Positions 1,504 to 20,685 of a stretch of 64,000 nt of DNA are shown here, piece by piece; position 1 is the stretch's first letter, and every line of letters starts with the position of its first letter. Source of the stretch: Escherichia phage W70. The stretch lies in the sequence record OP778610; one strand, given 5' to 3'. Made by a program: the position numbers and the translations under genes. The notes under the pieces are model-generated. The model did no database searches. It had not been told where the DNA came from and saw nothing but the letters and a program-made list of their open reading frames with translations.

Positions 1504-3036
1504 TTGAAGAAGAAGAATAAAGGTCGCAACACACAGGTTCGTAAAGCGACGAGCGAAGAATTAAACGTTGCTCGTTTACGAATGAGTGAGCAAGGTACTT
1601 TTGCTTTAGCTAAGGTTCAGGTGGAAACTGAACGTATGAAAGCTGAAGAAATTAAATGGCCTCAATTGATCGGTACGGTTGAAGCTATGAAACAAGATGC
1701 TACGGTAGCGACTGGTCTTGATATGCTTTACACTTTCGTAGAGAAAGCATTCAAGGACTTCAAAGTAATCCCTGGCAAATCTAAAGAGTCTCAAGACGCA
1801 GCAGAGTTCATTACCTTCTGCCTTCGTAACATGGAAGGTCAAACCCTGCGTCAATTTGCCCGTGACGCTGCCACATTTAACGAATACGGCATCTCTGTAG
1901 TTGAGAAGGTATATACTCAGATCCAGACTGGTGAATATGCAGGACGATTTAAGATTAAAAACCTTGCATTCCGTCCACAGGCTTCTCTGAGTCGTAAAAA
2001 CCCTCTCGTGTACAGCGATGATGGTTCTCGTGTTGTAGGTGTTAAGCAATCCCTTGATTCTTTCAAGAACTACACTGCCAGTCCTCTTGGCGCTTCTATT
2101 AGTGGCCTTATCGGCTCTCGTAAAGGCAATGACGTTGTAATCCCAGCAAACAAGCTGATGATCATGACTACTGGTGGTTCTTCTTCTCAAGCACTCGGCG
2201 TTTCCCCGTTGGTTGCTTGTTACCGACCTTGGCGTGAAAAGGTTCTTATTGAGAACCTCGAAGTTGTTGGTGCTACGAAAGACATGGGCGGCGTTATCGA
2301 ACTGAAGATTCCTTCTGCCATCCTTAACAAAGCTGCCATCGATCCTTCCAGCTACGAAGCAGAAATGGTTCAGGGTTTGATGATGGATGCTGCAAACGCC
2401 CACTCCGGTGAGCAATCTTTCTTTATGCTACCATCTGACGTTAAAGACAACTCACCTTTGTACTCAATGTCTCTGAAAGGCATTGATGGTATGGGTAAAC
2501 AGTACAGTACTCGTGACCTGATCAGTGATCGTAAAAAATCAATCCTTGATCGTCTGGGTGCGGGATTCCTGAACGTAGGTAATGATGCTTCTGGTTCATA
2601 CAACCTGTCGGAATCAAAACAAACTATCCATACTCAATTTGTACAACGTGTTAATGAAATTATCGCTGAAGCACTGAATGAAAACCTGCTCCCTCAGCTT
2701 CTGGCTCTGAACGGTATTCGTCTGGCAGAAAAAGAAATGCCATTCGTTAAATTTGGTCAGATCGTTGATACAGACATGGAAGGTTTCTCTAAAGCGGTTC
2801 AGCGTATGGGTGCTGTCGGCTACTTGCCTAAGACACCGGAAGTTATTAATCGCATTCTTGATGTTCTTGGAATCGATTATCAAGTTGGTGAAGATATTTC
2901 GCAAGAAGAACTTATGCTTCTCCTTGGAGATAATACCAGTCGTTCTGGCGATGGCTTTGCACAGGGGACTTCTGGAAACGGGACTGCAAAGATTAGCGGA
3001 ACAAGAGATAATTCAGTTTCTAATTTAGAAAATTGA
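1504..3036 (+). CDS. portal protein (putative)
   Basis: 510 aa ORF immediately downstream of the terminase, size and position typical of portal. Track start is a TTG; an ATG at about 1582 is an alternative start. Confidence 0.5.
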   Translation: MKKKNKGRNTQVRKATSEELNVARLRMSEQGTFALAKVQVETERMKAEEIKWPQLIGTVEAMKQDATVATGLDMLYTFVEKAFKDFKVIPGKSKESQDAAEFITFCLRNMEGQTLRQFARDAATFNEYGISVVEKVYTQIQTGEYAGRFKIKNLAFRPQASLSRKNPLVYSDDGSRVVGVKQSLDSFKNYTASPLGASISGLIGSRKGNDVVIPANKLMIMTTGGSSSQALGVSPLVACYRPWREKVLIENLEVVGATKDMGGVIELKIPSAILNKAAIDPSSYEAEMVQGLMMDAANAHSGEQSFFMLPSDVKDNSPLYSMSLKGIDGMGKQYSTRDLISDRKKSILDRLGAGFLNVGNDASGSYNLSESKQTIHTQFVQRVNEIIAEALNENLLPQLLALNGIRLAEKEMPFVKFGQIVDTDMEGFSKAVQRMGAVGYLPKTPEVINRILDVLGIDYQVGEDISQEELMLLLGDNTSRSGDGFAQGTSGNGTAKISGTRDNSVSNLEN

Positions 3037-3057: not shown

Positions 3058-3675
3058 TTGCAAAACGAATCGTTCAGTGTTAAAATAAATATCACGGGAG
3101 CAATGATGGAAAACATTACTATCTCCGACCTTCCTTCACAAACCTATCTGTCCCGAATCCAAAAGGGACGGGCTGTGAAAAAGGCCAATGAGCTACTTAA
3201 ACAGGGCTTCAATAAAGAGGCTTCTATTTCTGGAGCCATTGGCTCCGTTCTTGTCCAAAAAGCTGCACAGAAAGAAGAGATGATTTCTTACGAGATCATT
3301 TACGAACCTGATACGCCGGATGCTCATGGACAATGGATGAGCAAAGAGACACTAGTTAAAGCACAACAAGATTTCAAGAAAGCTCAAGAAATCGGTGCGG
3401 TAACTGAGAACTTGTACCACTTGGTTGATACCGAAGCATTCAAGATCGTAGATCATTGGATTCAGCCAGAAATTGATGTAACTGTCACACAAACAGGAGA
3501 AATCATAAAAGCAGGATCATGGGTAGCAAAGGTTCAATATTCACCTGAAGCATGGGAGTTAAAGAAAGCTGGCATCGTCGGTGGATTATCTCTTCAGTGC
3601 GGTGGTATGTTGAATGAGGAAACAAATGAGCTATCCGATCTTGATTTCAGTATCGAATTGGAAGAGGAAGAATAA
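3058..3675 (+). CDS. head morphogenesis protein (function unknown; position of a prohead protease)
   Basis: 205 aa ORF between portal and scaffold; acidic EEEE C-terminus; no catalytic motif recognised. Start uncertain (ATG at about 3103 possible). Confidence 0.35.
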   Translation: MQNESFSVKINITGAMMENITISDLPSQTYLSRIQKGRAVKKANELLKQGFNKEASISGAIGSVLVQKAAQKEEMISYEIIYEPDTPDAHGQWMSKETLVKAQQDFKKAQEIGAVTENLYHLVDTEAFKIVDHWIQPEIDVTVTQTGEIIKAGSWVAKVQYSPEAWELKKAGIVGGLSLQCGGMLNEETNELSDLDFSIELEEEE

Positions 3676-4769
3676 TGATTAAGACCCTTATAGAGAAAGG
3701 TCGCCAGATTAAATCTCGCGGAATTGCTCTAACTCACCGAGATCAAGGCTACAGTGCGAATAACCGCCACGTAAGCCTCCTCACTAAATCTGACATTGAC
3801 CCTAGCAAACTTACGGTTGATGTTATCAAAGCCCTTGAGCAAGTTCAAGTAACTATCAGTATGGAAGAGTTTTTACGTCGCTTCTTCCACATGTATTATG
3901 ATGATGCTGAGTTACTTACTAAGCTGCTGGGCTTCACAACTACCTTCGAAGACGAATATGCTGATAAAGATCCTGAAGACTTGGATTCTTATACGGCTGA
4001 TTACATCCGTCGTCATCAAGAATATCTCGATGAGAAGCTTGAAACAATCACTATCATCAAGAAAGCAAAAGAAGGTGCTGACCTTTCTCTCGTTGAACGC
4101 TTCGAGTTAATTAAGACTCGCAAGCAGTTTGAAGACGGATGTAAAGAATTGGGCCTTGACTTTGGTGACAATTCAGAATTATGCAAACCAGAAACTGGTG
4201 AAGTAGTTAAATCAGCTACTAAACCTGAACCTGTAAGCTCCGCTGGAGCGACCACAACCATCAAGGAGACTCCTGTGGAAAAAGAAGTAGATGTAACCAA
4301 GTCCCAACAATTCATTGATCTGATGAAAGCTAATGAAGCGTTGATGGCTCAGGTTGAAGGTATGAAAGAAACCTTCACCGCTGCTCAAGAAATCGTTAAA
4401 GCTCAGGCTGTTGCAAAACGTGAAGTTGCCTTGAACAAAGCTGCAAGTTTTGGTTTTGTTGCTGATGACCAACGTGAAGCTGTTGCTGACCTGATCGAAG
4501 ACCCAGCTAAAGCATCTGTTGTTGCTGTGCTGGAAAAAGCTGCTGCTGCTCTTAAAGAGAAAGACGAAGCTCTCGTCGCTAAAGATGCAGAAATCGAAGA
4601 GATCAAAAAATCCTTCGCTGACGGCAAAGAAGTAGGTGCTGATGGTCAACTGACTGAAGTTGCTAAAGGCTCTGAAGACGCTCAGGCTCGTTTGAACCGA
4701 GTAATCGCAGAACGTGCAGCAGAGATCGCTAAGGCTGCTAACGGCAATGCTGAATTTATTAACGCCTAA
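3675..4769 (+). CDS. scaffolding protein (putative)
   Basis: 364 aa, Ala/Glu/Lys-rich predicted coiled-coil C-terminal half, directly upstream of decoration and capsid genes; start overlaps previous stop (TAATG). Confidence 0.45.
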   Translation: MIKTLIEKGRQIKSRGIALTHRDQGYSANNRHVSLLTKSDIDPSKLTVDVIKALEQVQVTISMEEFLRRFFHMYYDDAELLTKLLGFTTTFEDEYADKDPEDLDSYTADYIRRHQEYLDEKLETITIIKKAKEGADLSLVERFELIKTRKQFEDGCKELGLDFGDNSELCKPETGEVVKSATKPEPVSSAGATTTIKETPVEKEVDVTKSQQFIDLMKANEALMAQVEGMKETFTAAQEIVKAQAVAKREVALNKAASFGFVADDQREAVADLIEDPAKASVVAVLEKAAAALKEKDEALVAKDAEIEEIKKSFADGKEVGADGQLTEVAKGSEDAQARLNRVIAERAAEIAKAANGNAEFINA

Positions 4770-4789: not shown

Positions 4790-5221
4790 ATGGCTAAAGC
4801 ACATGTTGTAACTCTCGAAGGTAACTACTCTGATATCGTACTGGGCCGTGTTGTTGCATTTGGTGACACTGGTTGGAACTTTGAAGAAGTAGAAATGGAT
4901 TATACTGCTGATCTGGTCGCAGGTCTGCTGGTTAAAGCTGATGGTACTCCGGCTGCTGTTGCAGACGCTGCTGACGTTTACGGTGTTCTGGTTGACCGTA
5001 AAGTTCTGCCTGGTGTTACCAAGCATGACGGCGCTACCCCGATGGCTGGTGAGAAGCTTCCTATGACTATCGCTGTTCGTGGTCTGACCCTGAACGCAAC
5101 CAAACTGGTCTACGCTGACGGTACTGCAATTGACGCTGCTGGTAAACTGGCTCTGTCTAAAGCTGGAAACCAAGTGACTGACCGTGTAGTAGCTACCGAA
5201 TTCCTGGGCGCTGTCCTGTAA
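4790..5221 (+). CDS. head decoration protein (putative, gpD-like position)
   Basis: 143 aa ORF directly upstream of the capsid gene; strongly biased high-expression codon usage (ctg, cgt, ggt). Confidence 0.4.
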   Translation: MAKAHVVTLEGNYSDIVLGRVVAFGDTGWNFEEVEMDYTADLVAGLLVKADGTPAAVADAADVYGVLVDRKVLPGVTKHDGATPMAGEKLPMTIAVRGLTLNATKLVYADGTAIDAAGKLALSKAGNQVTDRVVATEFLGAVL

Positions 5222-5244: not shown

Positions 5245-6240
5245 ATGCATAATGGTGATTTTCAAATCCTGGATTACACTGGCCTGATCTCTACTCTGCC
5301 GCGTGTTGATACCCTGCTTCAAAGCATGAACCTGTTCACTGAGAACTTTGGTCGTACCACTATCGCTAAAATCGAACGTCGTGATGACGGTGCTGGTCAG
5401 ATCAATGCTGTACAGCGTGGTAGCGTTCGTCAGCACCTGGGTAATGATCGTAAAAAGATCGTCAACCTGAATATCCCGTTCTTCCCTCTGGACCGTTCCA
5501 TTGACCGTGCTGATATCCAGAACTTCCGTGAATTCGGTACTGAAAATGCTCCGGCAACTGTTGAAGCTGAAGTAGCTCGTCACCTGGCTCGTATCCGTCG
5601 TAGTCATGCGGTTCTGAAATCCAAGGCAATGTACGCTGCTCTGAAAGGTACTTCCTGGTCGCCAAATGATCCGGTTTGTGATTACGACTACTACGATGTT
5701 TGGGGTGTAACCCAGCAGACTGCTGATGTTGACTTCACCTCTCTGGCTGTTGACCCGATTGAAGTGCTGGAAGCTGAAGCTCGTGCACATATCATCGATT
5801 ACGCAGGTGATCAAGGCGACAACTACGAGATCGTTGTTATGGCATCCCGTCAGTGGTTCTCTGCTCTGATTTCTCACCCGCAGGTAACTGGTGCATACTC
5901 TCAGTATCCGTCTACTCAGGAAATCCTGCGTCGTCGTCTGGGCGGTAATGCTAATAACCGTATCTTCGAACACAAGAACATCCTGTTCATCGAAGACATT
6001 TCCGGTAACATCCCTGCTGGTGAAGCATACATCTTCCCTCGTGGTATCGATCGTATGTTCGAAATCTATTACGCGCCGAGCGACACTCTGGAAGGTGCTA
6101 ACCAAGTAGCTCAGGAACTGTATGTATTCTTCAAAGAATCTCAGTACCTGCGTGAAGCGAAGATCGAATCTGAAACTTCCTTCCTGACTGTTAACAACCG
6201 TCCTGAACTGGTAGTTAAGTCTGTTGGTAAGTTTGAGTAA
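5245..6240 (+). CDS. major capsid protein (putative, lambda gpE-like position)
   Basis: 331 aa; strongest codon bias in the window; SD plus ATG; followed by a strong intrinsic terminator. Confidence 0.55.
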   Translation: MHNGDFQILDYTGLISTLPRVDTLLQSMNLFTENFGRTTIAKIERRDDGAGQINAVQRGSVRQHLGNDRKKIVNLNIPFFPLDRSIDRADIQNFREFGTENAPATVEAEVARHLARIRRSHAVLKSKAMYAALKGTSWSPNDPVCDYDYYDVWGVTQQTADVDFTSLAVDPIEVLEAEARAHIIDYAGDQGDNYEIVVMASRQWFSALISHPQVTGAYSQYPSTQEILRRRLGGNANNRIFEHKNILFIEDISGNIPAGEAYIFPRGIDRMFEIYYAPSDTLEGANQVAQELYVFFKESQYLREAKIESETSFLTVNNRPELVVKSVGKFE

Positions 6241-6256
6241 TCTTAATAACTAATTA

Positions 6257-6284
6257 AAGGTCACCTTCGGGTGGCCTTTTTTAT
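6257..6284 (+). terminator. rho-independent terminator after capsid gene
   Basis: GC hairpin aggtcacc-ttcg-ggtggcct followed by a T-run. Confidence 0.7.
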
Positions 6285-6364
6285 TATGCCTGTACAATTT
6301 AACCAAAATAGTGTACCATTATAAGATAGGCTATTAATCTAATCAATGACGAAGGAGTTATTTA

Positions 6365-6949
6365 ATGTCTAAGCAAACTCACTTGGAAGTCTTTAAGAGT
6401 GAATATCACATGCTCAAGTTCTTTGGTGAATATCTTGAAAAACTTGATGTAAACACCTCTGCACGTTTAGGTGCATTCCTTTATAGTTACGACGGTAAAC
6501 TGGTTCTTGCTCGTGGACTTTACGATTTCCTAACCCAAATGGAAAAGATGACCGCTCTCGGCATCGATACTCTGGCTTCTGCACAAAAAGGTACAAGTTT
6601 CTTAGTGTTTTTCAAAGAGAAACCTAAAGACCCTTTAAAATTTCGATTAGATGTTAAGAAAATCGAGGCTGTTAAAGAAGCTATCGTTGCTGACACCCCG
6701 TCTAAGGTAATGGAAGAGTCTGTTCTTGTCAATACCAAAGTTGAAGAAGTAGAAGTAAAGGCAGAATCATCTGACCGTACTGAAGAAGAAAAAGCACAGA
6801 TCTTGACTAAAGCTGAAGAACTGCGTGATGACAGCAAAAAGGCTGCATCTAAGGCTGCATTGGAAGCTTTCGCTGTGGAATATGGTATTTCACTGAGCAA
6901 AGGCAAAACCTTTGATGGGATGCTTGAAGATTTAGCTGCTGCACTATAA
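6365..6949 (+). CDS. hypothetical structural protein
   Basis: 194 aa ORF with SD; acidic and Lys-rich C-terminal half. Confidence 0.5.
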   Translation: MSKQTHLEVFKSEYHMLKFFGEYLEKLDVNTSARLGAFLYSYDGKLVLARGLYDFLTQMEKMTALGIDTLASAQKGTSFLVFFKEKPKDPLKFRLDVKKIEAVKEAIVADTPSKVMEESVLVNTKVEEVEVKAESSDRTEEEKAQILTKAEELRDDSKKAASKAALEAFAVEYGISLSKGKTFDGMLEDLAAAL

Positions 6950-6960
6950 TCCCACCTCAT

Positions 6961-6976
6961 GCCCCTGTTCAGGGGC
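6961..6976 (+). terminator. hairpin (possible terminator or attenuator)
   Basis: gcccctg-ttc-aggggc stem-loop after the 6365-6949 ORF; weak T tract. Confidence 0.3.
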
Positions 6977-7002
6977 TTAAAATCCCTAGGAGAATTTTAT
7001 AA

Positions 7003-10000
7003 ATGGCTGAATATAATGATAAGGTCGTGGAAGCATTCGTTACTGCCCCAGATCCTGTCGTAACTACCACTGGTGGTGGAGTTATTTTTGACGGTATTGA
7101 AACAGAAGATACTGTATCAACCCTGCTGATTGGTGATGGTACTGCATCCTCCCCTTTACAAGCGCAAGTCAAACTTTCTCGCCGTGCTGGTAACGCCCTG
7201 ACTATCGTTCAATCCGATACCGAGCAAGGCTTGTTTGCTACTGCCGGAGATGCTAAAGTTTCAGCTTCTCAAGTGAACATTGCAAAATACGTAACTGCGG
7301 AAGAAGCTGCTGCACAAGGCGATGCAGGTCTGGAAGGTATTTTGGTAGAGCCTGTCCATGCGACCACCACCGCAGTTGGCGATGCCTTGGAAATTACCGC
7401 AGATCCTTTGACGGCTAAAAAATCCCGCATTTCCCTGAAAGTTTCCCCTTCCGCAACCAACGCGTTATCTGTAGAGTCAGATGGATTGGCAGTTAAAGTC
7501 TCTCCTGCCGTTGACAACAGCCTGCAAGTCCGTGAAGGTGCACTTTACGTAGCTCCTGTTGGTGCTGATATTTCTCAAGACCCAGGTAACAAACTGGAAC
7601 AGCGTTCAGATGGACTGTTCGTAGAAACCATCAAAGGCGACAAAGGTGATCAGGGCGAGCAAGGACCAGAAGGTCCTCAAGGCCCAGCAGGGGAAGCTGG
7701 ACCTGCTGGACCACAGGGTGAAAAAGGCGACAAAGGCGATCAAGGTGAAGTCGGCCCTGCTGGCGCAACTGGCCCTGCTGGCCTGACTGGTGCAACTGGT
7801 CCTCGTGGTATAGAAGGACCTCGTGGCCCTGCTGGTATTGGTATTAATATCCTAGACACCCTTGCATCTGAAGACCAATTACCTTCTGTTGTTGATCTTT
7901 CGAATGGGGATACCTATGTAATAGGACAGAGTTTCTTTACCGTTATCACTGAAGGTGGTATCAAACAATGGAGAAACGTAGGTAACTTCGCTGGACCTGA
8001 AGGTCTTTCTGCATTTGAAGTTGCTGAAACCGCAGGCTTTGTTGGAACAGTTGATGACTGGTTGGCTACCCTTCGTGGTGCTGATGGAATCGGTCTGCAA
8101 TTACTCGGTTCTTTCCAACGAATTGAAGACCTTCCGGCAGAAGAGAACAACCCAGGCGATGCCTACATCATTCAAGAAAAGATGTATGTTTGGACTGGTG
8201 ATACAGATGGCTGGCAACCTGTAGGACAGATCGGTCCTGAAGGTCGTTCTGCTTATCAGGTCTGGCTGGCTAACGGGAACGTAGGTTCTCAGCGTGAATT
8301 CCTTGAATCACTGAAAGGTGAGAAAGGTGATACTGGCGATCAGGGTCCTCAGGGTATCCCAGGTGCAGATGGTAAAAATGCTAACGCCATTAATATCTTA
8401 GGTTCCGTTGCAGATCAGGCGAGTTTGCCAGAAGGTGCAGATGCAGGTGATGCTTACCTGATCGGTACTAACGTATTCGTTTCTGATGGTGCTGGCAACT
8501 GGCAAGACTTGGGATCTTTCCAAGGTCCGCAAGGTCCTACTGGTGCTAAAGGCGACAAGGGGGACAAAGGGGACAAAGGTGACAAAGGCGATAAAGGTGA
8601 TGACAACTATGCCATCGCAGTTGCTAACGGTTTCCAAGGATCAGTAAATGAATACCTTGCATCTATCAAGGGTGAGAAAGGTGACGTTGGTGCAACTGGC
8701 CCTCGTGGATTAGCTGGTCCACAAGGTGAACAAGGTCCTGTTGGTGCGGGTCTGAATATCCTTGGCTCAGTAGCTTCCGAAGACCAATTGCCTCAGACTG
8801 GTATTAGTGAAGGTGATGCTTATCTGATTGAAGCTGATCTTTATATCTTTACTGGCGGTCAGTGGACTAACGTTGGTAACATCAAAGGTCCCCAAGGGGA
8901 TGTAGGACCACAAGGTCCACAAGGTCCTATTGGTCTGACTGGTGCACAAGGACCGCAGGGTGCAACAGGGGCACAAGGTCCTGCTGGTCCCCAAGGTGAG
9001 ACTGGTCCACAAGGTGGTATTGGTCCACAGGGCGAGACTGGCGAGAAAGGTGACAAGGGCGATAAGGGTGATAAGGGTGATACTGGAATTGGTATCGTTG
9101 CTCGTGGTATTGTTGCAACTCAAGAAGCACTTCCTGCCGATGCCACCACTGGTGACTTCTACGTTGTAGAGTCTGAAGGTAATGGTTATGCTTGGGACGG
9201 CACTGCATGGGTACTGACTGGTCTTACTCGTGGACCTCAGGGTCTGAAGGGCGACAAAGGCGACACTGGTGAGAAAGGAGACAAAGGAGACAAAGGCGAC
9301 GCAGGTGATGCACTGAAGCTGAAAGGTTTGGTTGCAACCTCCGCTGAACTTCCTTCTACTGCTGAATTAGGTGACTTCTACGTAGCTGAAGACACTGGAA
9401 TCGGTTACGCTTGGGATGGCGTGGAATTCGTTTCTGCCGGAACCGTTAGAGGACCGCAAGGTGAAGTAGGGCCTCAGGGTGAAATTGGCCCTCAAGGACC
9501 GCAAGGCGAGAAGGGAGATGCTGGCGACCAAGGACCTCAAGGATTGGTCGGTGAAACAGGTGCAAAAGGTGATAAAGGGGATAAGGGTGACGTTGGCTCT
9601 GGTCTGATTCCGAGAGGAACTTTACCGTCTCAAGCAGACCTTCCTCAAACTGGTGAAGTTGGTGACTTCTACGTAGCTAACGATACTGGTATTGGATATG
9701 CTTTTGACGGAACTACATTCGTAGAAGCTGGCGTTGCCCGTGGTCCACAGGGTGAACAAGGACCTCAGGGTGAACAGGGACCTCAAGGTCTTAAAGGGGA
9801 TACTGGTGAAACAGGTGCTCAGGGACCTCAAGGTGCTCAAGGTGAGAAAGGTGATACCGGAGAACGTGGAGAGGTAGGTCCGCAAGGTGATCAGGGACCG
9901 CAAGGTGAGCAAGGTCCTCAGGGTGATATCGGACCAGGTGTAGAGATCATTGGACGATTTGATACCTCTGATGAATTACCTTCCACGGGTACTTTGGGTC

Positions 10001-10803
10001 AAGGTTACCTTATCCAAGGCGACTTCTGGGGTTGGACTGGTGCAGCATACGAGAACTTGGGTCGTATTCAAGGTCCGGTTGGACCAGTAGGTCCTACGGG
10101 TGACCAAGGACCACAAGGCCCTGTCGGTAACAAAGGCGATAAAGGCGACCAAGGGACCCTTTGGGTAGTTTTTGCTCGTGCACCAATGGTGAGCGATGGT
10201 CGTGTTAACGACCTGTACCTCAACTCTTCCACTCTGGAATATTACCGTAAAACTTCCGCAACGAACTGGGCACTGCTCGGATTCTTAGGTGGTGGTAACG
10301 TGTATGACGCACCAGGGGACGGAAAGCTGTATGTCCGTACTGATGGTGGTTGGGTTGAATTACCTACCGCAGAAGTTCTGGAAGCACCTCGTGATGGTAA
10401 CCAATACGTCCGTAAAGACGGCGCTTGGACAACTGTTACAGTTCCTGTAACGGAAGCACCACTTGAAGGTGGATTCTACGTCCGTGAAAATGGTGCGTGG
10501 GTTAAACTGGATCAGTACGATTTACGTGTTGTTGCTTCAACTGGTGCAATTGATGCAAGCTCTGGTAATGCTTGGACTTTAGATGGTACAACCAACAAGT
10601 CCTTGACTATCACCGGATTGCCAGCAGGAAGGGCTAAAACCATAGTTTTACGATTCACGGGTAACGGTGGTCAGATTAACTGGGATAGCCAGATCGCTTG
10701 GTCTAACGGAACAGCACCTACTCTCGGGGCTACTCGCACTATCCTAACCTTGTTCTGGGATGGTGAGTTCCTGACGGGTACTCAAGCAATGACTATAGGT
10801 TAA
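7003..10803 (+). CDS. collagen-like fibre protein with tail-fibre repeats
   Basis: 1266 aa; many Gly-X-Y tracts alternating with about eight copies of a roughly 50-aa module (ILGSVA..DQLP...GDAYLI...W.NVG) and three SAY...WL.SLKG tail-fibre-repeat motifs; non-collagenous C-terminal domain. Confidence 0.85.
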   Translation: MAEYNDKVVEAFVTAPDPVVTTTGGGVIFDGIETEDTVSTLLIGDGTASSPLQAQVKLSRRAGNALTIVQSDTEQGLFATAGDAKVSASQVNIAKYVTAEEAAAQGDAGLEGILVEPVHATTTAVGDALEITADPLTAKKSRISLKVSPSATNALSVESDGLAVKVSPAVDNSLQVREGALYVAPVGADISQDPGNKLEQRSDGLFVETIKGDKGDQGEQGPEGPQGPAGEAGPAGPQGEKGDKGDQGEVGPAGATGPAGLTGATGPRGIEGPRGPAGIGINILDTLASEDQLPSVVDLSNGDTYVIGQSFFTVITEGGIKQWRNVGNFAGPEGLSAFEVAETAGFVGTVDDWLATLRGADGIGLQLLGSFQRIEDLPAEENNPGDAYIIQEKMYVWTGDTDGWQPVGQIGPEGRSAYQVWLANGNVGSQREFLESLKGEKGDTGDQGPQGIPGADGKNANAINILGSVADQASLPEGADAGDAYLIGTNVFVSDGAGNWQDLGSFQGPQGPTGAKGDKGDKGDKGDKGDKGDDNYAIAVANGFQGSVNEYLASIKGEKGDVGATGPRGLAGPQGEQGPVGAGLNILGSVASEDQLPQTGISEGDAYLIEADLYIFTGGQWTNVGNIKGPQGDVGPQGPQGPIGLTGAQGPQGATGAQGPAGPQGETGPQGGIGPQGETGEKGDKGDKGDKGDTGIGIVARGIVATQEALPADATTGDFYVVESEGNGYAWDGTAWVLTGLTRGPQGLKGDKGDTGEKGDKGDKGDAGDALKLKGLVATSAELPSTAELGDFYVAEDTGIGYAWDGVEFVSAGTVRGPQGEVGPQGEIGPQGPQGEKGDAGDQGPQGLVGETGAKGDKGDKGDVGSGLIPRGTLPSQADLPQTGEVGDFYVANDTGIGYAFDGTTFVEAGVARGPQGEQGPQGEQGPQGLKGDTGETGAQGPQGAQGEKGDTGERGEVGPQGDQGPQGEQGPQGDIGPGVEIIGRFDTSDELPSTGTLGQGYLIQGDFWGWTGAAYENLGRIQGPVGPVGPTGDQGPQGPVGNKGDKGDQGTLWVVFARAPMVSDGRVNDLYLNSSTLEYYRKTSATNWALLGFLGGGNVYDAPGDGKLYVRTDGGWVELPTAEVLEAPRDGNQYVRKDGAWTTVTVPVTEAPLEGGFYVRENGAWVKLDQYDLRVVASTGAIDASSGNAWTLDGTTNKSLTITGLPAGRAKTIVLRFTGNGGQINWDSQIAWSNGTAPTLGATRTILTLFWDGEFLTGTQAMTIG
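8551..8604 (+). repeat. in-frame 9-bp tandem repeat encoding (GDK)n
   Basis: Six consecutive ggNgaYaaR nonamers encoding GDKGDKGDKGDKGDKGDD; shorter copies near 9049, 9246, 9570 and 10129. Confidence 0.8.
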
Positions 10804-10812
10804 TTTTTAAAT

Positions 10813-10834
10813 GGGGGCTTAGGCCCCCTCTTTC
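10813..10834 (+). terminator. rho-independent terminator
   Basis: gggggc-tta-gccccc hairpin followed by tcttt. Confidence 0.6.
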
Positions 10835-10848
10835 AGAAAGGAGTTAAT

Positions 10849-11484
10849 ATGGTGATCGATAAGATTTATGGCTGGACCCCCATGATCCGCATGTCTGACA
10901 TGCGTTATCCGGTATACCTGGCCGACTACCGTGCTGAATATCCTAACGTATCTATTGGTAGCTTTGTTTACGCTGTCGGTATGGCTGAAGTTGGATATCA
11001 TGCGGTTTATGATGTACCGATGCCGCAAGGTGATGTTGTTACGGAAGGACTTCCAGAATTACGAGAAGACGGTTTCTGGTACAGAACTTGGAACGTTAGA
11101 GATTTCACCGAGCAAGAGATTGCCGATAATCTTATCCGTGAAAAAGAGCAACGCATCAATGAAGCTCGAATGGTTCTAGATAATGAAAGATCTGAGGGTG
11201 TTTTTGTATCCGGTAAAAGATATCAATCCGACGCTCAAGCTTTTACTTATTACAGTTCTATCTCTGCTGTTGCTAAAGATTCACCTGAAGGTGTTTTTCA
11301 CTTAGTGACCTCTGACAATCAGGTGGAGGAATTTTTTGGTGATGACGTTATTGTCCACATCAAAGAAATTCAAAAAGTAAATGCAAAAATTTACGATGAG
11401 TTTGCTAAAATTGTAAAAGTTATCCGCGAAGCAAAATCCCCTGAAGAAATCCCTCAAGTTCCTCCCTCGTTCCAAAATATCTAA
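10849..11484 (+). CDS. hypothetical protein
   Basis: 211 aa ORF with SD aggag upstream; between the two collagen-like genes. Confidence 0.55.
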   Translation: MVIDKIYGWTPMIRMSDMRYPVYLADYRAEYPNVSIGSFVYAVGMAEVGYHAVYDVPMPQGDVVTEGLPELREDGFWYRTWNVRDFTEQEIADNLIREKEQRINEARMVLDNERSEGVFVSGKRYQSDAQAFTYYSSISAVAKDSPEGVFHLVTSDNQVEEFFGDDVIVHIKEIQKVNAKIYDEFAKIVKVIREAKSPEEIPQVPPSFQNI

Positions 11485-11516
11485 TTAATCTTCTAACGTA
11501 ACAGAAGGATGTAAAA

Positions 11517-13100
11517 ATGAGTAAAAGTATTAGCGGAATGGCAGGTCATAATAACGGTGTTTTTTACGGAAATGCCTTTTATGATTTAGAAAGAAAGGTT
11601 AAAATGGATTTTAAAGATATCATGGAAAAAGGTGATTCCAGCCAAACACCTGGTCCAGAAGGACCACAAGGACCAAAAGGGGATACTGGTCCTACCGGAC
11701 CTGTAGGCCCACAAGGTGATACCGGACCTCAGGGACCTGCGGGTTTTCAGGGTCCTGCGGGTTTTCAGGGTCCTGTTGGGGAGACAGGCCCTGCTGGCCC
11801 TGAAGGTAAAGAAGGACCCCAAGGCCCTCAAGGGGAGCAAGGTGTGGCTGGACCCACTGGACCTAAAGGTGATACTGGCGATCAGGGTCCTCAAGGAGAA
11901 CAAGGTCCTCAAGGTATTAAAGGGGACACTGGTGAACAGGGTCCTGCCGGACAAGAAGGACCAATAGGTCCAACTGGACCGACTGGCCCTGCCGGACCAA
12001 AAGGGGATGTTGGACCTCAGGGACCTAAAGGTGAAACTGGACCTCAGGGACCTATAGGACCACAAGGCCCTCAAGGGGATGTTGGCCCTGTAGGACCAGC
12101 AGGACTTACTTTCCGAGGTTTTTATGATCCTTTAGTTGAATACTCTCAGAACGATACTGTATCTTACAACGGATCTACTTATTTTTCCTTAAGAACAAGC
12201 ACAGGCGCTAGTCCAGACACATCACTTGAAGATTGGTCTTTATTGGCAGCAGAGGGAGCAAGAGGACCAGCAGGCCCTACAGGCCCTCAGGGACCTAAAG
12301 GCGATCAGGGTGAGATTGGTCCTGCCGGAGCTACTGGTCCTGAAGGTCCAATAGGTCCAACTGGCCCAACTGGCCCTCAAGGCCCTCAAGGGGATAAAGG
12401 AGATAAAGGAGAGGCTGGTCCTCAAGGACCTAAGGGTGATCAAGGGGTCAGAGGAGAACAAGGTCCACAAGGAATAACTGGGTCTACTGGCCCTGCTGGT
12501 CCGCAGGGGCCTAAAGGTGACAAAGGGGATGCAGGTCCTCAGGGTTTGGATGGGGCAACTGGATCAACTGGCGCTCAAGGCCCTCAAGGCCCTCAAGGCC
12601 CTCAAGGTATTAGAGGGGCAACTGGTCCGCAGGGGCCTAAAGGTGAAACTGGTGCTACCGGCCCACAGGGTCCAGCAGGTCAAAATAATACAAACAATCC
12701 AGTTTATACAACTCAACTTTCCGTATCGACAAGCTACTCAGCTATAGCTATACCAAACAACCCTGGCATCTCTTTTTCAGTCAGAAGGGTTGGGAATAAC
12801 ATTGAGTACTCTTTTATAGGCAACTCAATTGCAGGAAGGTATTTTGATGTTGAGGTTGTAAACTTTCCATCTGCTAACGTAGTTAAGAGATATCAGGCAA
12901 ATCACACAATTGCAGGAACTAGCAGGTATGTTGTAGGTGATCCTGCGGGTTATACTGGTGGAGGATATAAAAGGATTCAATTCTCAGCTAGAGATTGGGG
13001 AGATAAAAACATTATAATGATTGATGTTTTTCATCTTCAGCGCCCATCTGATACTAGTTTTAACATCGCCATTAGGATTGAGACATTCAAACTCCCTTGA
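11517..13100 (+). CDS. collagen-like protein with C-terminal globular domain
   Basis: 527 aa; two long uninterrupted Gly-X-Y blocks separated by a short non-collagen segment, then a roughly 150-aa C-terminal domain. Confidence 0.8.
11736..11771 (+). repeat. perfect 18-bp tandem duplication (GPAGFQ x2)
   Basis: cctgcgggttttcagggt occurs twice in tandem, in frame; also a 9-bp x3 repeat (GPQGPQGPQ) at 12576-12605. Confidence 0.85.
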
Positions 13101-13105
13101 TAATA

Positions 13106-13134
13106 AAAGCCACCCTCGGGTGGCTTTATTTTTA
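13106..13134 (+). terminator. rho-independent terminator
   Basis: aagccaccc-tcg-ggtggctt hairpin plus T-run. Confidence 0.7.
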
Positions 13135-13159
13135 TACAAATGACTTTCTTTTTATTTTA

Positions 13160-13168
13160 TGGTAAAAT
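13160..13168 (+). promoter_or_regulatory. extended -10 promoter-like motif TGGTAAAAT
   Basis: One of four near-identical TGnTAAAAT(A) motifs placed 20-40 nt upstream of structural-gene starts, each after a terminator; no obvious -35. Confidence 0.35.
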
Positions 13169-13191
13169 GTTCTAATACACTGGAGGAATAT

Positions 13192-13713
13192 ATGACTGAT
13201 GAAGAAGTAGTACAACTTGTCCGTAACTTTTTAGGCGGTCTTACTGAAGATGAAATGCCTGATAGCATGATTCTGTTTTTCTATAATAAATGGAAGGTCT
13301 GTTATGATTTAGAAAACAGACCTGATCAATTCTCCATTATTCTTTATAACACCGTATTAGATTGTGTCCGCTGGCTTCTGGTTCAAAGCGTTTCAAGTGG
13401 TGCTTCTGGCATCCGTGAAAGATTTGAGAAGGTAGGTGATGAGACGATATCTGTTAAGTATGGAGATAGCTCAGGTAATTGGCAAAATTTCTTGGATTAC
13501 CTGCTTGAACATCCCGAATATATAGATCCTTGTTTAAAAGAGGCAAACGGGAATGGTTTAGGTCTTGTCATCATTGGCGGCGTAAGAAGAAATGAAGTTA
13601 ACCGTGTTCGTAGAAACCCAAATTCTCATAACGGTTTCATGGAGCAAGGTATCTATCCCGCACCAGGTACAAGATCCAGTGTAAGAAAGCGTAATCCGTG
13701 GATGGTTAAGTAA
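13192..13713 (+). CDS. hypothetical protein (head-tail region)
   Basis: ORF with GGAGG SD and ATG at 13192; the track's upstream start at 13159 lies inside the promoter motif and is rejected. Confidence 0.5.
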   Translation: MTDEEVVQLVRNFLGGLTEDEMPDSMILFFYNKWKVCYDLENRPDQFSIILYNTVLDCVRWLLVQSVSSGASGIRERFEKVGDETISVKYGDSSGNWQNFLDYLLEHPEYIDPCLKEANGNGLGLVIIGGVRRNEVNRVRRNPNSHNGFMEQGIYPAPGTRSSVRKRNPWMVK

Positions 13714-13746
13714 AGCTTTGAGTTTGTTGCTTTTGCTCATCTATTG

Positions 13747-13755
13747 TGGTAAAAT
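13747..13755 (+). promoter_or_regulatory. extended -10 promoter-like motif TGGTAAAAT
   Basis: Second copy of the TGnTAAAAT motif, upstream of the 13777 ORF. Confidence 0.35.
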
Positions 13756-13776
13756 AACTTTCATGGAGAAATAACC

Positions 13777-14238
13777 GTGAAGAAAACATCGACAATTGAT
13801 TTTTCTGTCATGGATCGCTATTTCGACCAACTCTCAGATTTAGAAACAAAAGAGATTGAGGTGGGCTTCTTTGATGAGGCTCATTACTCTGGTTTGAATA
13901 TGGCGACTCTCGCAGCTATTCACGAATTAGGATGGAACAATCTTCCTGAACGTAACTTCATGCTTTCTACTTCGATTCATTATCGCGGTGGACTTATCAA
14001 GAACCTGAAACGGCTTAATGATGATTTGCTGAAAGGTAAGTCATACAACCCTGCACTAAAGAAAATCGGTAAAGACTACGCTGACAGCATTCGTTTTACG
14101 ATTGACCAAGGTACGTTCTCTAATAACCGAGTATCTACAGCATGGGCGAGCTATAAAGGGTTCAGTGATGCAATGATCCATTACGGCGATCTTTCAGATT
14201 CAGCGAAGTTTAAGATTGTCCCTCTTACGAAAGACTAA
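13777..14238 (+). CDS. hypothetical protein (head-tail joining region)
   Basis: 153 aa ORF, GTG start. Confidence 0.5.
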   Translation: MKKTSTIDFSVMDRYFDQLSDLETKEIEVGFFDEAHYSGLNMATLAAIHELGWNNLPERNFMLSTSIHYRGGLIKNLKRLNDDLLKGKSYNPALKKIGKDYADSIRFTIDQGTFSNNRVSTAWASYKGFSDAMIHYGDLSDSAKFKIVPLTKD

Positions 14239-20660: not shown

Positions 20661-20685
20661 AGGGGGCTTCGGCCCCCTTTTTTAT
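20661..20685 (+). terminator. rho-independent terminator
   Basis: agggggc-ttcg-gccccct hairpin plus tttttt. Confidence 0.7.

Follow-up and report, generated by a model that had tools for sequence, protein, structure and literature searches.

Two long collagen-like genes that stand between the capsid and tail genes of a phage raise the question of whether their products are head fibres or tail fibres, and short tandem repeats within the same genes raise a second, of whether copy-number changes vary the fibres in frame. Both questions were posed by an original prediction made from a 64,000-nt stretch of Escherichia phage W70 (sequence record OP778610; hereafter the window), and the first of them is genuine. 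We verified the two open reading frames (ORFs), which encode proteins of 1266 amino acids (aa) at positions 7003-10803 (fibre 1; orthologues W70_131, CB7_10 and phiTE_215) and of 527 aa at 11517-13100 (fibre 2; orthologue W70_129), and their predicted location holds, as they are flanked by the major capsid gene on one side and by adaptor, neck and sheath genes on the other. Window bases 6000-14000 are 100% identical to Escherichia phage A73 (OP778609.1, 142 kb, Vequintavirinae), the coordinates in the fibre region are those of that record, and the fibre proteins are named after A73 below; all features described for this region are on the plus strand. A73, W70, A7-1 and A5-4 belong to the genus Septuagintavirus (Cortes-Martin et al. 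2024, PMC11370258). We lean, if only slightly, towards the following answer: positions 6365-13100 would be a terminator-bounded late unit in the head-gene block, encoding two homotrimeric collagen-like accessory virion fibres and two helpers, in which fibre 2 is anchored to the capsid and carries an exchangeable tip, fibre 1 may attach at any of several sites, and the repeats are not a mechanism of variation.

The four genes of this unit are bracketed by terminator-like hairpins, one directly 3' of the major capsid gene (6256-6279; 10-bp stem and T tail), which forms the upstream boundary, and one directly 3' of fibre 2 (13106-13127), which is the downstream boundary both of the unit and of the allele-swap cassette described below. 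The annotation of phiTE has the same terminator arrangement, including a terminator at the equivalent post-capsid place. The first gene encodes a 194-aa Inh_N-like protein (6365-6949; phrog_3259, weakly phrog_1051), and the two fibre genes are separated by a gene for a 211-aa DUF4376-like protein, a putative fibre-assembly chaperone or fibre-associated protein (10849-11484; orthologues W70_130, CB7_11 and phiTE_216). PF26097 (Phage_Inh_N) is present on orthologues of the 194-aa protein, which accompanies fibre 1 in Septuaginta-, Certre- and Seunavirus; rV5 lacks both this protein and the fibre cassette. Both fibres are collagen triple-helix repeat proteins: Pfam Collagen (PF01391) matches fibre 1 with 150.8 bits (E = 8.7e-45) and fibre 2 with 159.8 bits (E = 1.3e-47), against a cut-off of 27.2, and the two proteins hold 129 and 99 Gly-X-Y triplets, respectively.

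In close relatives, orthologues of the two fibres and the 211-aa protein are abundant constituents of purified virions, so the absence from virions that would have spoken against the original prediction is not what is seen. In the published virion proteomics of W70, W70_131 (fibre 1; phrog_3904, 129 kDa) has 2032 spectra, the highest count in the table, W70_129 (fibre 2; phrog_5073, 53 kDa) has 728 and W70_130 (the 211-aa protein; phrog_4998, 24 kDa) has 114. The supplement of the W70 paper confirms the orthology of the three proteins with those of A73, and the PHROG matches of the A73 proteins are to the same families. In the Certrevirus CB7, the products CB7_10, CB7_11 and CB7_12 were confirmed in virions by mass spectrometry. 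Published work attributes the tail fibres to a different pair of genes next to the baseplate genes, equivalent to A73_126 and A73_121. We rejected an estimate of copy number from the W70 spectral counts, which are unusable because the 12-copy portal (about 8.3 spectra per kDa) outscores the sheath (about 6.1), which is present in far more copies.

The case for a capsid site of fibre 2 starts from its gene slot, which closes the post-capsid unit, between the DUF4376-like and adaptor genes, and in related phages is occupied by differing proteins with a common N-terminal motif. The slot holds fibre 2 in the A73 clade, a 164-aa protein in phiTE (phiTE_217) and CB7, a 129-aa protein in GAP31, and a mini-collagen of about 100 aa together with a fibre 2 homologue in CR3, P7_Pc, POP15 and SSBI34. 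When the fibre 2-type and phiTE_217-type N-termini were aligned with hhalign, they matched with a probability of 97.2%; with the collagen part removed the match was 94% (E = 1.5e-7, score 31.9), and this score was reached by 0 of 200 column shuffles (shuffled control 8.0 +/- 1.8, maximum 15.3). Electron cryo-microscopy (cryo-EM) of phiTE has revealed a hexamer-centred 'Pagoda' decoration density with an asymmetric capsid interface (Hodgkinson-Bean et al. 2025, PMC11972413), and the Pagoda was putatively assigned, on abundance, to the phiTE_217 product pTE217 (PMC11972413). This abundant virion protein is thus homologous to fibre 2 over its N-terminal 35-40 aa or so and is encoded in the same slot; it differs in its length of 164 aa, its small globular body and its lack of collagen, whereas in fibre 2 the 99 Gly-X-Y triplets are accompanied by a CBM-like insert and a tip of 137 aa. 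The anchor of fibre 2 is of a 'type B' that is found side by side with type A in CR3-like phages; Gly-X-Y runs occur in the type-A anchor proteins of CR3, POP15, P7_Pc and SSBI34. Most pTE217 relatives carry such runs and must therefore be trimers; we infer that a trimer on a sixfold site would give the asymmetric interface of the Pagoda. The C-terminus of GAP31_205 matches 'head fiber' PHROGs.

The mini-collagens of CR3-type Certrevirus (L021 5037-5348, L022 4968-5258, L023 4822-5133 and L007 6470-6817) combine a phiTE_217-type anchor with about 11 Gly-X-Y triplets and a beta domain of 35 aa; they are reminiscent of SPP1 gp12 and coexist with a full fibre 2 homologue.

Fibre 2 itself begins with the N-terminal anchor (aa 1-45; 11517-11651), homologous to the N-terminus of phiTE_217/CB7_12, and continues with collagen run I (51 triplets; 11652-12110), a 48-aa CBM5/12-like insert (12111-12254), collagen run II (48 triplets; 12255-12686) and a C-terminal tip of 137 aa (12687-13097), a swappable putative binding domain. 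The insert, recognized from alignments and a sub-threshold Pfam match (CBM_5_12, PF02839; E = 1.7e-4, 22 bits, below the 26.2 cut-off, with half of the model aligned), is conserved in all fibre 2 homologues, those of siphophages included. The tip has no Pfam or PHROG match and is rare, with 13 representative clusters among 1.84 billion proteins.

Fibre 2 is only 44-73% identical among phages whose fibre 1 is conserved. Between A73 and A7_1, identity is 100% up to about position 11480, drops to 45-70% through the fibre 2 gene and returns to 92-100% at 13103; this is an allele swap between near-identical phages, bounded by the borders of the fibre 2 gene. Between A73 and both siphophage MM01 and a relative from the Logan assemblies, identity is about 50% until a recombination junction at about 12635 in collagen run II, and 93-100% from there to the stop codon; this junction falls within the last collagen triplets. 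The exchanged block (12639-13096), which contains the tip, is 96-97% identical at the nucleotide level to Rogunavirinae siphophages. In these the protein sharing the fibre 2 shaft and tip (65% identical over aa 82-527) has a DUF1737-type N-terminus of its own and is encoded between the decoration and capsid genes. The fibre 2 gene of UPEC06 is a finer mosaic, the same anchor bears at least five tip types, and some relatives have two tandem paralogues. These patterns of identity show that fibre 2 varies by replacement of the whole gene or of the tip through recombination. E. coli 311IE2-3 supports plaques of A5-4 and A7-1 but not of A73 or W70, a difference that parallels the fibre 2 allele as a correlation only.

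Two uncultured relatives encode the tandem paralogues (L015 8668-12155, 536 and 538 aa; L016 760-3275, 537 and 287 aa), which share the N-terminal anchor and differ in their tips, suggesting mixed fibre populations on one virion. The collagen genes of Rogunavirinae lie at 7921-9462 in L009 and 4918-6462 in L010; their DUF1737-type N-terminus occurs in 35 phage records, under labels that include tail fibre, collagen protein and even DNA polymerase.

On balance we favour, somewhat, a capsid location: fibre 2 is probably a head fibre because it belongs to a terminator-bounded unit after the capsid gene, its anchor is homologous to that of the Pagoda candidate, and its siphophage counterpart is encoded between decoration and capsid genes. 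The first 40 or so residues of fibre 2 would then bind the capsid, most likely at hexamer centres, with a trimer seated on a quasi-sixfold site as in the Pagoda density of phiTE and in SPP1 gp12. The collagen helix rises 0.286 nm per residue, which gives about 85 nm for the 99 triplets of fibre 2 and about 111 nm for those of fibre 1 before its modules are counted. A triple helix of about 85 nm with a CBM5/12-like knob would hold the 137-aa tip off the head, where it may contact host surface structures weakly and reversibly, enlarging the capture radius and biasing host range. New tips could be gained in frame because Gly-X-Y coding DNA offers recombination junctions; the collagen-coding DNA would serve as an in-frame recombination joint and not as a slippage device.

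A proposed role in reversible adhesion would not be peculiar to fibre 2. SPP1 gp12, a tiny protein of 64 aa, has no distal binding domain, and fibre 2 is likened to it by description, not by sequence; the likeness is that of a collagen-like trimer at capsid hexamer centres. Its gene lies beside the capsid gene and it, too, has been proposed as an adhesion aid (review PMC7602432). Reversible adhesion has likewise been proposed for phi29 gp8.5 and Pa223 gp52, and help with adhesion has been proposed for these two and for the capsid fibres of 7-7-1 and phiCbK alike, the spike of Pa223 being more variable than the Pa223 tail fibres. The capsid fibres of Pa223 (gp52), phi29 (gp8.5), 7-7-1 and phiCbK resemble fibre 2 in having an N-terminal attachment of about 40 aa, a trimeric shaft and a distal knob; they differ in their beta-helix or helical shafts, their much shorter length and their position at threefold axes or vertices, and we found no sequence similarity between them and our fibres.

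Fibre 1 would be the conserved long fibre of the pair, with at least 111 nm of collagen plus modules. Its N-terminal region (aa 1-211; 7003-7635) opens with about 60 aa that are conserved across three genera in our alignment and constitute the putative lineage-specific attachment part; shaft-like repeats of the form 'N.L....DGL.V' follow, and the region gives a sub-threshold match to a Pfam adenovirus-fibre family. The N-terminus found no match in an IMG/VR scan or in a collection of 15 billion proteins; that collection holds neither fibre sequence, though both flanking proteins are in it. The shaft (7636-10161) alternates nine Gly-X-Y runs, totalling 129 triplets, with modules of about 50 aa (M1-M8; pairwise identity 18-58%; consensus G[IL].[IL].G......LP.....GD.Y.[IV]......W.G..W...G...GPQG) and also contains three modules of about 25 aa ('SAYxVA..NGF.G....L.S.KG'). 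The original prediction had described such an alternation with about eight copies of the larger module, and the count is exactly eight; its 'three tail-fibre repeats' are three tandem foldon-like beta-hairpins (aa 1099-1174; 10297-10524) within the C-terminal part (aa 1054-1266). Pfam Fibritin_C (PF07921) matches these in three stretches (49.4 bits, cut-off 21), PDB foldons match as well, and hairpin VLEAPRDGNQYVRKDGAW resembles the T4 foldon IPEAPRDGQAYVRKDGEW in alignment. The hairpins are followed by a C-terminal globular domain (aa 1175-1266; 10525-10800), all-beta in a low-confidence AlphaFold2 (AF2) model, which is about 55% identical in Certre- and Seunavirus and occurs in jumbo phages as well. 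The AF2 model of the C-terminal region, built from 4 sequences, has a predicted local distance difference test score (pLDDT) of 52.8 and is too poor for a fold search. No PDB relative was found for the profile of the 50-aa module, and when fibre 1, fibre 2 and the 211-aa protein were compared with PDB sequences, the matches were to collagens and the foldon only.

The number of hairpins varies, from two in the Certre- and Seunavirus orthologues of fibre 1 (CB7, SSBI34, GAP31, and also P0019 and P0021) to three in the A73 clade and P0020 and more in Noxifer. Certreviruses are reportedly flagella-dependent. A stretch of fibre 1 (aa 33-116; 7099-7350) has a marginal profile match (E = 0.014) to chain M of 9RKV, a baseplate tail fibre of the flagellotropic phage 7-7-1, with the common motif D.sT..f.GDG...PL.A.VK...AGN.L.

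The 211-aa protein gave a confident AF2 model (pLDDT 91.7), and a Foldseek search of BFVD with this model returned many DUF4376 and 'tail assembly chaperone' proteins (E = 3e-17 to 1e-4), one of them Noxifer gp137 (E = 3e-17, template modelling score 0.91). The modelled fold is thus of the DUF4376 (tail-fibre assembly chaperone) type. No solved homologue was found; PF14301 is carried by the homologue P0017, and the A73 protein itself has no Pfam match at E <= 0.01. A gene of this type lies directly downstream of its fibre gene in A73, CB7, phiTE, GAP31, Ea35-70 and Noxifer, that is, directly 3' in three lineages, a further likeness to DUF4376 chaperones. In the jumbo phages Ea35-70 (E = 1e-21) and Noxifer (E = 6e-16), homologues stand 3' of the same fibre family and the N-termini of the fibres differ from that of fibre 1; fibre 1 and the 211-aa protein therefore look like a mobile fibre-chaperone pair with lineage-specific attachment ends. 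Folding of fibre 1 probably needs the DUF4376-like protein, and the foldon-like hairpins in its C-terminal part probably fix the register of the trimer.

As to where fibre 1 attaches, the unmodelled 'third fibre' of phiTE, the neck and the capsid could each be the site. The RefSeq structural block of phiTE contains exactly three tail-fibre genes, 215, 236 and 241, and since 236 and 241 can be matched to the short and long tail fibres, 215, the orthologue of fibre 1, may be the third fibre.

Several points weigh against placing fibre 2 on the capsid. The assignment of the Pagoda to pTE217 is putative and rests only on mass-spectrometry abundance, the anchor homology spans only 32-46 columns or so, no structure places either A73 fibre, and the function of the tip is putative, with no fold assigned to it. 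Papers on KEC4, Jab and phi92 give no localisation of these fibre proteins. The remaining points on this side also favour a rival that we consider unlikely, in which both fibres are ordinary baseplate-attached tail fibres and their capsid-side position is a historical accident of a mobile fibre-plus-chaperone cassette. RefSeq and GenBank label both as tail fibres and the PHROG labels read 'tail fiber'; the authors of the W70 study describe, from electron microscopy, thin flexible fibres that are bundled at the tail and not on the head; the cassette adjoins the sheath gene in Noxifer, and synteny with the capsid gene is not universal; the motif match to 9RKV_M, marginal as it is, is to a tail fibre; and the baseplate network of phiTE has an unmodelled third fibre, for which phiTE_215, as the sole remaining gene with a tail-fibre annotation, may account by elimination, with no evidence beyond this. 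However, the PHROG labels are driven by collagen repeats, the anchor of fibre 2 is homologous to that of a putative capsid protein, the siphophage counterpart sits within a head module, dedicated baseplate-adjacent fibres are already present (A73_126 and A73_121), and no Stf or other tail-fibre N-terminal Pfam domain was found. The GenBank label of side tail fibre (Stf) for fibre 2 rests on its likeness to collagen-like side tail fibres; those of E. coli prophages (Ghosh et al. 2012, PMC3368898) and lambda Stf do share with it collagen trimers and modular C-termini, and are followed by chaperones. Fibre 2, in contrast, lacks an Stf-type N-terminal Pfam domain, its gene belongs to a head unit, and downstream of it come a terminator and the adaptor gene, with no Tfa gene. 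For fibre 1 we consider it improbable that it is a neck whisker like T4 fibritin (wac), attached at the connector, lying along the tail and touching upward-bent long tail fibres whose deployment it controls. Its three Fibritin_C/foldon-like hairpins (EAPRDGNQYVRKDGAW versus EAPRDGQAYVRKDGEW in fibritin) and its gene directly upstream of adaptor and head-completion genes would suit such a trimeric accessory fibre encoded near neck genes, and the long tail fibres of phiTE have been proposed to bend towards the capsid and touch the third fibre. Nevertheless, the connector reconstruction of phiTE reports no collar or whiskers, and fibritin has a segmented alpha-helical coiled-coil shaft with the foldon at its extreme C-terminus, whereas fibre 1 has a shaft of collagen and modules, a different N-terminus, and hairpins that are internal and followed by a 92-aa domain. 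Strict length conservation would fit a spacer, but fibre 1 lengths differ between genera (1099 versus 1266 aa) while tape-measure proteins are near-equal (807 and 811 aa); on the same figures we rejected fibre 1 as a tail-length 'ruler' across genera. It is about as improbable that the fibres are not host adhesins, and instead keep virions dispersed, attach to polymers in the environment (mucus, for example, as has been proposed for T4 Hoc) or lend the capsid stability. Roles of this kind are known for decoration proteins (review PMC7602432), fibre 1 is conserved over phages of different host genera, and the sub-threshold CBM5/12-like insert would be in keeping with them; against this, coliphages exchange the hypervariable fibre 2 tip among themselves, as is typical of host-recognition domains, and the fibre 2 allele correlates with plaquing on 311IE2-3. 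An extension of the capsid placement that we regard as doubtful has 'hairy' Septuagintavirus capsids, with up to about 120 hexamer centres each bearing a fibre 2 of about 90 nm with a receptor-binding tip; head fibres would then set the first contact and part of the host range, and tips would move between myovirus and siphovirus capsids via the collagen-DNA recombination joint, each lineage keeping its own short anchor.

There remains the proposal that the in-frame tandem repeats are contingency loci, at which slipped-strand copy changes tune fibre length or binding within populations. We consider this very improbable, and it is already largely refuted. The repeats had been described as exact, and this holds for the 18-bp duplication (11736-11771) and for the 9-bp x3 repeat (about 12574-12600), in collagen runs I and II of fibre 2, which exceed what the peptide repeat predicts (P = 0.006 and P = 0.013, both by synonymous resampling) and are, in favour of the proposal, true DNA-level duplications. 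It does not hold for the (GDK)n run of fibre 1: this (GDK)5-GD run (8548-8604) is imperfect in DNA, its units are codon-scrambled by synonymous differences (85% matches by Tandem Repeats Finder, TRF), and their identity fits codon usage (P = 0.45; P = 0.23 for the second GDK run, 9040-9082). The TRF listing contains 35 nine-base-periodic rows; a nine-base period is inherent to Gly-X-Y coding. We compared the fibre 1 genes of A73, A7_1, A5-4, UPEC06, LTH01 and three Logan assemblies found via the 211-aa protein. Seven of the eight encode exactly 1266 aa without any indel, at 84-100% nucleotide identity to A73, and the (GDK)5 copy number is the same in all eight, with synonymous differences only. 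The sole indel, and the other point in favour of contingency, is the loss in A5-4 of one 9-bp AAGGGTGAT unit (about 9064-9072) from the second GDK run. Copy number in fibre 1 is thus essentially invariant across related genomes, an outcome that the original prediction had itself named as refuting it. At the fibre 2 repeats UPEC06 is the only relative close enough for alignment, and no copy-number difference from A73 was found at the 18-bp duplication or the 9-bp x3 repeat; there is likewise no length difference, and fibre 2 diversity is accounted for by gene and tip replacement. Slippage is possible but is selected against, and the short tandem repeats arise as a side effect of coding for collagen and are no mechanism of variation. 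Gly-X-Y runs yield many tandem-repeat calls, and such calls should not be taken as contingency loci. Around the 18-bp duplication (11688-11750), A73-UPEC06 identity falls to about 58% without change of length, flanked by 97-100% on the upstream (N-terminal) side and about 72-82% downstream; this patch looks like a local conversion.

Each ingredient is already known, from collagen-like fibres in phages and foldon-type trimerisation units to fibre chaperones and fibres bound to capsids, and the fibre proteins considered here are already annotated and proteomically verified. In the main texts consulted we found no mention of the anchor homology to the Pagoda candidate of phiTE, of collagen-stalked versions of the Pagoda family, or of tips shared with siphophage head modules; these three together are a testable hypothesis and not a new kind of system. 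If fibre 2 is indeed a capsid fibre with a swappable tip, host-range prediction and engineering in Vequintavirinae and Rogunavirinae should include the head module and not baseplate fibres only, and the 'tail fiber' label that collagen-like phage proteins receive in automatic annotation would often be mistaken. The unmodelled Pagoda density of phiTE would also be explained, testably, as a trimer, often collagen-stalked, on a sixfold site, and the N-terminal anchor would provide a handle for the display of cargo on T=13 capsids.

Upstream of the unit, the head-gene block of the window comprises genes for the terminase (1-1488), portal (1504-3036), protease (3103-3675), a 364-aa protein (3675-4769), the decoration protein (4790-5221) and the major capsid protein (5245-6240); downstream of fibre 2 follow those for the adaptor, neck proteins, terminator protein, sheath and tube. 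The 364-aa protein occupies the place expected of a scaffold gene, its orthologues carry PF26210 (Phage_phiTE_211), and the W70 orthologue is abundant in virions (913 spectra), where it is listed as 'capsid protein'. At window position 20666, in an intergenic region 3' of the tape-measure gene, the window has the G-run GGGGG where OP778609.1 has GGGG, and this extra G offsets the downstream coordinates of that record by one.

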